Shown in pieces: positions 21,979 through 22,490 of a DNA stretch of 24,824 nucleotides (the stretch's first letter is position 1; the number at the start of each line of letters is the position of its first letter). The translations under genes were made by a program, and so were the position numbers. The stretch is from a virus. The notes below the pieces were generated by a model. The model did no database searches. It worked only from the letters and a program-made list of their open reading frames with translations, and was not told the DNA's origin. The stretch is from IMG/VR virus record IMGVR_UViG_3300050821_003111; one strand, given 5' to 3'.

Positions 21979-22092
21979 TTATGATCGTCTTACAACGTAC
22001 TGTGATAGTATTTCTTTTATTTTAGATCTTGGCATTAATCTTAGACATCGTTGATTCGTCCAGAACCATGTTACTCTAACCCACCATTTCAT
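21979..22092 (-). CDS. MKWW-family micro-protein, 37 aa (MKWWVRVTWFWTNQRCLRLMPRSKIKEILSQYVVRRS)
   Basis: ATGA overlap with the upstream member. Its stop is followed by AGAGGAG, which serves as the Shine-Dalgarno of natV. Confidence 0.5.
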   Translation of the reverse strand: MKWWVRVTWFWTNQRCLRLMPRSKIKEILSQYVVRRS

Positions 22093-22208
22093 ATTGATTT
22101 CCTTAAATATTGATTTCTATATTTTCTGTGTATTAATCTTAAACAATAACTATAACGACTACCTACATGATCGGCTATTACATTGTTCATTAGCTTCCAC
22201 CATGTCAT
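22089..22208 (-). CDS. MKWW-family micro-protein, 39 aa (MTWWKLMNNVIADHVGSRYSYCLRLIHRKYRNQYLRKSI)
   Basis: AGGAAAGGG Shine-Dalgarno. MTWWK and HRKYR. Confidence 0.5.
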   Translation of the reverse strand: MTWWKLMNNVIADHVGSRYSYCLRLIHRKYRNQYLRKSI

Positions 22209-22223
22209 GGCAATCCCTTTCCT

Positions 22224-22337
22224 TCAAATTGATTTGTGTTCAAAGTAAGTGCGCCACTTTTTATAACGGGGAAATAAACGTATATGTGGGTGGTTATTCC
22301 AGACATTACATGAACCAACACGAACCCACCATTTCAT
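22224..22337 (-). CDS. MKWW-family micro-protein, 37 aa (MKWWVRVGSCNVWNNHPHIRLFPRYKKWRTYFEHKSI)
   Basis: TAGGAGATATAC+ATG ribosome-binding site. MKWWVR. Confidence 0.5.
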   Translation of the reverse strand: MKWWVRVGSCNVWNNHPHIRLFPRYKKWRTYFEHKSI

Positions 22338-22346
22338 GTATATCTC

Positions 22347-22490
22347 CTATATTGAAGGCGGATATGCCTTTGGATATGCCTCTTGGCACATTTTACCAAT
22401 TTTTCTATGGACTACTGTTATCTTCCAACCTGGATTGGTTTTTGGTTTATGAGTAGCACCTGTATGATACCATCTTAGCCACCATTTCAT
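22347..22490 (-). CDS. MKWW-family micro-protein, 47 aa (MKWWLRWYHTGATHKPKTNPGWKITVVHRKIGKMCQEAYPKAYPPSI)
   Basis: ATG overlaps the TGA of the SprT-like gene (ATGA). Confidence 0.5.
   Translation of the reverse strand: MKWWLRWYHTGATHKPKTNPGWKITVVHRKIGKMCQEAYPKAYPPSI

Follow-up and report, generated by a model that had tools for sequence, protein, structure and literature searches.

Tandem MKWW micro-ORFs in the gap upstream of natV and nadV as candidate translationally coupled genes of an unannotated phage family

Analysis of the viral DNA of IMG/VR record IMGVR_UViG_3300050821_003111 (24,824 nucleotides (nt); hereafter the window) revealed that the 512-nt 'gap' at positions 21979-22490, situated between a putatively SprT-like open reading frame (ORF) and the nicotinamide adenine dinucleotide (NAD+) salvage genes natV and nadV, is tiled by four micro-ORFs, m1 to m4, on the minus strand, which is the strand of all genes in this part of the window (Table 1). 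The four ORFs of 37-47 amino acids (aa), starting with MKWW or MTWW, are all present as described in an earlier note made from the DNA letters, and occupy approximately 95% of the gap. The window contains eight copies of the start motif ATGAMNTGGTGG, all of them on the minus strand, whereas 100 shuffles gave a mean of 0.00. At 0.069 stops per codon an open frame of 37 codons is expected by chance with P = 0.072, and four such frames in a row with P ~3e-5.

Table 1. Features of the window, with the micro-ORF array under study listed first
Feature	Positions	Strand	Description
m1	22347-22490	-	47 aa, starts MKWWLRW; peptide MKWWLRWYHTGATHKPKTNPGWKITVVHRKIGKMCQEAYPKAYPPSI
m2	22224-22337	-	37 aa, starts MKWWVRV; peptide MKWWVRVGSCNVWNNHPHIRLFPRYKKWRTYFEHKSI
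m3	22089-22208	-	39 aa, starts MTWWKLM; peptide MTWWKLMNNVIADHVGSRYSYCLRLIHRKYRNQYLRKSI
m4	21979-22092	-	37 aa, starts MKWWVRV; peptide MKWWVRVTWFWTNQRCLRLMPRSKIKEILSQYVVRRS
Array A	10134-10390	-	two chained members (45 and 40 aa) located downstream of the gene for the SpoU methylase
Array B	16104-16782	-	six chained members, 32-45 aa, flanked by a 191-aa ORF and the Rnl1-type RNA ligase gene
127-aa ORF	22487-22870	-	putatively SprT-like, HExxH motif (LHEMTH); stop chained to m1
natV	20994-21968	-	bifunctional nicotinamide mononucleotide (NMN) adenylyltransferase/Nudix; Pfam NUDIX, JGI name, 82 homologues
nadV	19523-21001	-	nicotinamide phosphoribosyltransferase; Pfam NAMPT_N and NAPRTase; overlaps the natV end
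Antisense 120-aa ORF	22094-22456	+	TTG start; judged spurious
tRNA-Ile (tat)	2718-2810		tRNA gene
tRNA-Arg (tct)	6132-6208		tRNA gene
tRNA-Leu (taa)	7248-7334		tRNA gene
tRNA-His (gtg)	24351-24426		tRNA gene
tRNA-Leu (tag)	24448-24533		tRNA gene
Thg1-like	13541-14299		
Rnl1-type RNA ligase	14951-16141		
PHA02142-type RNA ligase	22873-24162		
SpoU methylase	10482-11036		
NADAR	9511-9978		

The junctions of this array were analysed at the nucleotide level. The ATG of m1 (22490-22488) shares the tetranucleotide ATGA with the TGA (22489-22487) of the upstream 127-aa ORF, so that the first micro-ORF does start on the stop codon of the SprT-like gene (overlap at 22490-22487), as had been proposed. 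The AGGAG ahead of m2 (22348-22344) takes in the TAG stop of m1, while the sequence upstream of m3, GAAGGAAAGGG (22225-22215), is GGA-rich and holds no clean AGGAG; the claim that the second and the third member both have an AGGAG-type Shine-Dalgarno sequence of their own thus stands for m2 and is only loosely right for m3. The m3/m4 junction is an ATGA overlap with AAGGA located 7 nt upstream of the m4 start. The TAA of m4 (21981-21979) is followed by the AGAGGAG (21978-21972) that the earlier note had placed between the last micro-ORF and natV, then by AAT and the natV ATG (21968). The resulting spacings, from the SprT-like ORF to natV, are -4, +9, +15, -4 and +10.

A scan for start codons followed by WW indicated that the window carries 12 clear members in total, distributed over three arrays, A, B and the one under study, C. 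Alignment of these members revealed M-K-W-W-x-R, a variable loop and h-I-x-L-x-x-R-K-Y-R, often followed by a C-terminal (K/R)-S-I or R-R-S-F. The peptides m3 and m4 have in common a CLRL..R motif of the second strand that is also shared at the DNA level (21-nt repeat D2). A further ORF of 36 aa with a TTG start, MGWKVMWIRFYLRGRHSYITRLMLPRGRW... (10387-10497, minus strand), lies in the chain that joins the SpoU gene to array A. It is a doubtful candidate for a degenerate third member of array A, and a family hidden Markov model (HMM) of 136 members does not recover it.

Relatives of the window were defined by their NatV proteins and comprised P0004 (loci L013/L014; listed at 76%, 75% by pairwise comparison), P0010 (L011/L012, 66%), P0013 (L015, 64%) and P0017 (L016/L017, 62%). 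Their contigs reach 216 kb (P0010) and 211-213 kb (P0017); the L011/L012 contigs examined are 39-159 kb long. The synteny is conserved and consists of a PHA02142-type RNA ligase, small genes, an uncalled gap, natV and nadV. The earlier note had suggested looking for MKWW genes at the same position in relatives bearing natV and nadV, and they are present there, on the natV strand, in L011 (five), L013 (four), L015 (four) and L016 (13). Conservation of the frames, on which that note had made its claim depend, was likewise found: L013 holds two m1 orthologues of the same length (47 aa, 57% and 53% identity) and one m2 orthologue (1397-1513, 52% identity). The identities between the window and L013 are 67% for the RNA ligase, 75% for NatV and 45% for the SprT-like ORF, and the divergence of the micro-ORF orthologues is intermediate between that of the RNA ligase and that of the SprT-like ORF.

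Additional arrays were identified in the relatives, located close to the NADAR gene and ahead of the Rnl1-type ligase, and L016 alone carries 35 members in 21 kb, which is approximately 18% of that stretch. The window and the four related loci yielded a set of 77 members, which increased to 136 when JGI metagenome contigs were added; the DNA-pattern scan of the JGI metagenomes returned 85 loci, of which about 20 are genuine chained arrays with up to 14 members (L022). Neither a motif scan nor the 136-member HMM detected members in the sister lineage L018 (NatV 55%, same synteny) or in the more distant relatives through L021. Judged from this distribution, the micro-ORFs probably represent a large paralogous and unannotated family that is restricted to a single clade of large uncultured phages. 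In L018 the gap between the RNA ligase gene and natV contains two basic ORFs (9638-10028; 67 and 69 aa) that are rich in aromatic residues and show no significant match to the family HMM. Single MKWW ORFs of 45 aa abut or overlap tRNA genes in L011 (ORF 6443-6580, tRNA 6577-6662) and L016 (ORF 4038-4175, tRNA 4182-4254), which hints at a recurrent link of MKWW ORFs with tRNA genes.

Alignment of the 136 members revealed M1 (100%), W3 and W4 (100% each), K2 (84%) and R6 (73%), a position 7 that is either aromatic or hydrophobic, a loop rich in G, N and Y, and then [I/L/V], x, [L/I] (95%), x, P, R (92%), [K/R], x, R, R and the end R-R-S-F. The peptides are 26-65 aa long (median 37). Beyond the first four residues arginine accounts for 19.3% of the positions, compared with 4.5% in the long genes of the window and a random expectation of 8.3%, and all six of its codons are used in gene-like proportions. 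Aspartate and glutamate together make up 4% and aromatic residues including histidine about 20%, and the mean net charge is +7.9 (range +4 to +12). The codon of Lys-2 alternates between AAA and AAG. Subfamilies recur across phages and arrays, e.g. ...ERRE..HYDG..R.S.R.W.R.YR...RVTF in L011 and L016, and MKWWLRHINGGIKLFNRRWRKYYNIRYWRRSL is a member of a conserved subfamily. Two longer members of 51-52 aa in L015 (7282-7592), with identical copies in L046 and L050, have a CxCxxC motif at the C-terminus (LCLCPSCL, CFCDSCL), and this tail may extend the basic fold by a metal-binding element.

The proportions of nonsynonymous (pN) and synonymous (pS) differences were determined for nine same-length pairs from different contigs, from which the first six and the last four sense codons were excluded. 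The pooled values were pS 0.68 and pN 0.25, a ratio of 0.37. The pair L053/L092 differs by one residue with pS 0.48 and pN 0.02, and the pair L068/L072 gave pS 0.89 and pN 0.14. For m1 and its counterpart in L013 the values were pS 0.54 and pN 0.31 over the core codons and pS 0.49 and pN 0.25 over the whole ORF. The sequences within L011/L012, L013/L014, L016/L017 and window/L009/L010 are 100% identical and therefore provide no population single-nucleotide polymorphisms. We conclude that the ORFs behave as real genes under purifying selection at the peptide level, and that they are genuine, chained micro-protein genes is, to judge from their sequences, very probable.

The same data bear on two other explanations of the region. 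The minus strand could be non-coding, a repeat or a structured RNA, or the antisense 120-aa ORF could be the real gene, given that this ORF was listed in the initial gene track and that public calls leave the gap empty. The array shows no excess of RNA structure (folding z-score -0.37), the Rfam scan detected only tRNAs and RNase P RNA, all at other sites, and Tandem Repeats Finder reported only a 12-nt repeat of 2.2 copies, there being no inverted repeats and no tandem DNA repeat beyond a start junction of ~31 nt. The antisense frame, open for 133 codons in the window, is open for at most 53 codons in L013, the nearest relative; Pfam gave no match for the 120-aa ORF and the other assemblies of this phage do not call it, in agreement with the earlier view of it as an artefact of the array. 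With the sense ORFs conserved and constrained, we regard this explanation as exceedingly improbable. Alternatively, the ORFs could be selfish or neutral filler, that is, cassettes spread by unequal recombination at a junction of ~26 nt and kept for the translational relay described below, the peptides themselves being inert. The copy number at one site indeed ranges from 4 to 13, the start junction is the main repeated DNA in array C (~31 nt, 65-81% identity, beside the shorter 21-nt m3/m4 repeat), L018 lacks the family and some paralogues diverge almost freely. Purifying selection acts on the cores away from the junctions (pN/pS 0.37; pN 0.02 against pS 0.48), however, subfamilies are kept across arrays and across phages of differing GC content, acidic residues are depleted and the four-fold arginine excess is achieved through all six codons, so that inert filler is an improbable account.

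The spacing of the 77 members indicated extensive chaining. For the 61 that lie less than 200 nt from the preceding member, the spacing is -4 in 34 (ATGA or TTGA) and -1 in 17 (TAATG or TGATG), which are the classic spacings of translationally coupled genes and of termination-reinitiation (PMC12548453). A uniform -1 frame step follows trivially from these -4 and -1 overlaps. Start codons are ATG in 65, TTG in 11 and GTG in one, and A-G-G-A is enriched at -11 to -8 before the starts. The common C-terminus R-R-S-F is encoded by AGG-AGG-TCA-TTC-TAATG, so that the two arginine codons AGG-AGG also provide the following ORF with its Shine-Dalgarno sequence. An ATGA overlap joins the last micro-ORF to the natV start in L011, L015 and L016. 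In L013 (region 1596-1625) the most likely natV start is a TTG that lies behind AAGGAGATCATT and within a TTGA overlap with the last micro-ORF, a junction of the type found between micro-ORFs, and this start codon therefore probably depends on the relay. The public call of the L013 natV begins at 1593, which is 24 nt further upstream.

No sigma-70-like promoter or intrinsic-terminator match was present on the minus strand within 21979-22490, and the genes share the features of coupled operons, namely the same strand, spacings of -4 to a few nt and Shine-Dalgarno sequences within the upstream ORF. The view that the array is an integral, co-translated part of an operon continuing into natV and nadV is supported, at the level of sequence, by the overlaps, by the junctions of the relatives and by this lack of an internal promoter match. 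We infer a single mRNA and termination-reinitiation running from the SprT-like ORF through m1-m4 to natV and nadV. The arrays would be transcribed together with their neighbouring genes and translated as a relay, in which a ribosome ending the upstream gene would halt at a stop codon (UGA or UAA) overlapping the start codon of the next one (AUG or UUG; -4 or -1) and restart with the help of a Shine-Dalgarno sequence, often supplied by the AGGAGG that encodes the C-terminal Arg-Arg of the preceding peptide. Two further ideas on decoding were rejected: a programmed -1 frameshift fusion, as no slippery heptamer occurs at the junctions, and stop-codon recoding, as the neighbouring long genes are intact under code 11.

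The arrays resemble known coupled overlapping gene pairs in the dominance of the -4/-1 geometry, the Shine-Dalgarno sequence inside the upstream ORF and the weak TTG starts in overlaps (PMC12548453), and differ from these pairs or short runs of ordinary-sized genes in that up to 11-13 paralogues of ~37 codons relay between unrelated enzymes. Relays of 11-13 genes probe the reach of termination-reinitiation and are a possible natural model for multi-gene coupling. A comparison may also be drawn with the PeSL cassettes of T4-type hyperplastic regions, which, reportedly described by Arbiol et al. in 2010, are said to carry an early promoter and a stem-loop each and to hold unrelated ORFs. In both cases tiny accessory ORFs are clustered between early or accessory genes that are conserved, and copy content varies among relatives, but the MKWW arrays show no promoter or hairpin matches and consist of one family, coupling replacing the individual promoters.

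Short ORFs with tandem Trp codons are known as leader peptides of the trp-operon type, and the micro-ORFs could likewise be regulatory leaders in which translation of the tandem Trp codons, not the peptide, matters. Each micro-ORF would monitor the supply of charged tRNA-Trp or of ribosomes and, as in attenuation or upstream-ORF (uORF) control, regulate how the relay enters natV, nadV and other downstream genes. The micro-ORFs share with trp leaders their short length, the adjacent UGG-UGG, which is invariant at codons 3-4 in all 136 of 136 members, and a position upstream of metabolic genes; moreover, the downstream genes appear to rely on the relay, as at the L013 natV with its TTG in the TTGA overlap, and TTG starts occur in 11 of 77 members. 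Unlike trp leaders, they lack attenuator hairpins, terminator-like hairpins followed by a U-run, inverted repeats and excess RNA structure, their Trp codons are not near the end of the ORF, and they exist in many copies with conserved cores under purifying selection. A single sensor would be enough, yet up to 11-13 follow each other, and the arrays precede genes as unrelated as natV, the Rnl1-type ligase and NADAR. A leader function is consequently a highly improbable explanation.

Database searches indicated that the family is practically invisible to gene callers in spite of dozens of copies per genome region. Public gene calls contain one of the 13 candidate ORFs of the window (12 confirmed members), and other assemblies of the same phage have no gene calls in the gap between the SprT-like ORF and natV. 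Searches of Pfam and PHROGs with the 13 window peptides gave no significant match, the best hits being E 0.037 (an Apicomplexa microprotein) and, in PHROGs, 0.054 and 0.082, each to a single member. The profile of alignment A2 had no match in the PDB at E <= 10, and Foldseek of the structural model gave a best E of 8.4. When the family alignment was used in a word-indexed search of a 5.8-billion-protein collection, the sole match was ORF 10134-10256 (P0001) of the window itself. A lone match of the exhaustive HMMER search among 1.84 billion representatives (E 1.2e-4), a 1535-aa HYR-like repeat protein aligned over an 'ITRKYR' stretch only, was judged a chance hit and rejected. Tblastn of two members against GenBank phages gave nothing credible. 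In IMG/VR, peptide-word scans with NatV and the SprT-like ORF returned no relatives, and the DNA-pattern scan with two copies of ATGAMNTGGTGG gave unrelated matches only, mostly AT-rich repeats that appear to stem from giant viruses. The same kind of scan of GTDB genomes returned 31 pattern matches and zero genuine arrays, and a description of the family was not found by searching the full text of the literature for 'MKWW' or by topical searches. No precedent for the protein family or for the array architecture was thus found, while the coupling geometry and coupled accessory small genes of phages are already known. The 'intergenic gaps' of large phages can hence conceal conserved, selected micro-proteins.

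AlphaFold2, run on the 12 window sequences with m2 first in alignment A2, predicted an amphipathic beta-hairpin (residues 4-10 and 17-23) followed by a short helix (28-34) with a predicted local distance difference test (pLDDT) of 69. The products of the relay would be peptides of 26-65 aa with a charge of about +8 and the consensus M-K-W-W-h-R-aromatic, loop, [ILV]-x-[LI]-x-P-R-[KR]-x-R-R, R-R-S-F. Because the composition favours arginine over lysine and is rich in Trp and Tyr, the sequences have neither a hydrophobic segment nor a signal peptide, and the neighbourhood holds tRNA genes, an RNase P RNA, two RNA ligases, a Thg1-like gene, a SpoU methylase and NADAR, joined by PNKP and PTH2 in relatives, the peptides might bind a polyanion, with RNA (tRNA or rRNA, for example) as the most likely target, a suggestion that we advance tentatively and hold to be possible rather than probable. 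The coupling would give equimolar output, which fits co-assembly, and may let the members of an array assemble with each other. Precursors of ribosomally synthesised and post-translationally modified peptides (RiPPs) were rejected, since no modifying enzymes are encoded nearby and only four N-terminal residues are conserved.

Small arginine-rich proteins of the DUF1127 type are RNA-associated. With ~40-50 aa, a high arginine content and, in some genomes, several copies, they are comparable to the MKWW peptides and serve as a functional analogue for the RNA-binding suggestion. They differ in that the MKWW peptides carry the signature MKWW-x-R ... I-x-L-x-P-R, are phage-encoded, tandem and coupled, and have no Pfam match; DUF1127 was absent from the Pfam matches at E <= 1 for all 13 window peptides. 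Small and arginine-rich bacterial proteins of this type, e.g. YjiS, are the subject of PMC11707872.

The same composition admits a membrane-active or host-takeover role, in which the peptides would act on the inner membrane or the envelope to depolarise it, exclude superinfection or assist lysis. Arginine at 19%, about 20% aromatics including histidine, D+E of 4%, the charge of +8 and the predicted amphipathic beta-hairpin would suit such a role, and KWW-h-R-h recalls the alternating aromatic/Arg pattern of the tachyplesin and polyphemusin type. Cationic Trp/Arg-rich beta-hairpin antimicrobial peptides include tachyplesin, polyphemusin, arenicin and indolicidin-like peptides. The likeness to them is at the level of composition, comprising alternating aromatic and Arg residues, high positive charge and a predicted hairpin, and the MKWW peptides are unlike them in being twice as long and made inside the infected cell, with no disulfide cysteines and no signal or propeptide. 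The listed sequences have no signal peptide, hydrophobic stretch or conserved cysteine pairs, the operon partners are NAD-salvage and RNA-repair genes and not lysis genes, and a generic effect hardly explains dozens of distinct conserved paralogues; action on membranes is accordingly unlikely.

Taken as a whole, the evidence is best explained by coupled micro-protein genes of an unannotated phage family, with binding of RNA or another polyanion added as a guess, and we consider this reading likely. Several points weigh against it. Constraint is weak in some paralogue pairs (L016 19519 vs 16082: pN 0.58, pS 0.71), and synonymous divergence (dS) is near saturation in most comparisons. Methionine and tryptophan have a single codon each, and constraint on AUG-AAA-UGG-UGG at the RNA level is therefore inseparable from constraint at the protein level. 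The absence of members from L018 means that the family is dispensable for the NAD-salvage gene module. The structural model is of only moderate confidence, is derived from a 12-sequence alignment and has no structural neighbour. The RNA-binding idea draws on composition and neighbourhood, and the region could simply hold accessory genes. Transcription, translation and peptide production are predicted from the sequence.

A bolder version of the RNA-binding idea, which we rate as quite unlikely, is that the arrays encode a diversified set of cationic beta-hairpins, co-produced in fixed stoichiometry, that would co-assemble on, or singly recognise, RNAs of the host or of the phage, such as tRNAs, rRNA and substrates of RNase P. 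In that case they would be phage effectors of a new class, acting to reprogramme the machinery of translation and tRNAs or to protect it, e.g. against tRNA-targeting or NAD-depleting defences, the relay serving to expand and shuffle the repertoire. The arrays may expose a new layer of host takeover tied to tRNA repair and NAD+ salvage. If the peptides do bind RNA or membranes, they would constitute new compact cationic beta-hairpin binders or antimicrobial scaffolds.

Concerning the neighbouring genes, the assignment of the 127-aa ORF as SprT-like is putative: its match to PF10263 lies below threshold (E 0.0014, 18.9 bits; 22.2 for the L013 orthologue; cut-off 25.6), with HEMTH present. The word-indexed search of the 5.8-billion-protein collection returned only the ORF itself, and no other homologue was found. 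The window carries a dense tRNA and RNA-repair module (Table 1), to which PNKP and PTH2 are added in relatives. RF00010 (bacterial RNase P RNA, class A; model of 367 positions) matched above the gathering score at 8663-8932 of the window (minus strand; 106.3 bits over 270 nt) and in L015 at 18486-18710 (plus strand; 116.3 bits over 225 nt). These phages appear to carry, beside tRNA and tRNA-repair genes, an RNase P RNA gene of greatly reduced size.

An 806-aa ORF at 11100-13520 (minus strand) showed matches to the major vault protein shoulder domain (2.7e-26), Vault_3 and SPFH/Band 7, which is unusual in a phage contig; a protein of this type was not seen in the analysed parts of L011, L015 and L016. 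The sole megablast match of 19500-24824 in GenBank phages was at 24448-24531 (84.5% over 84 nt), to a feature annotated as tRNA-Ser in Bacteriophage DSS3_MAL1, and the ARAGORN call for the window gene is tRNA-Leu(tag).

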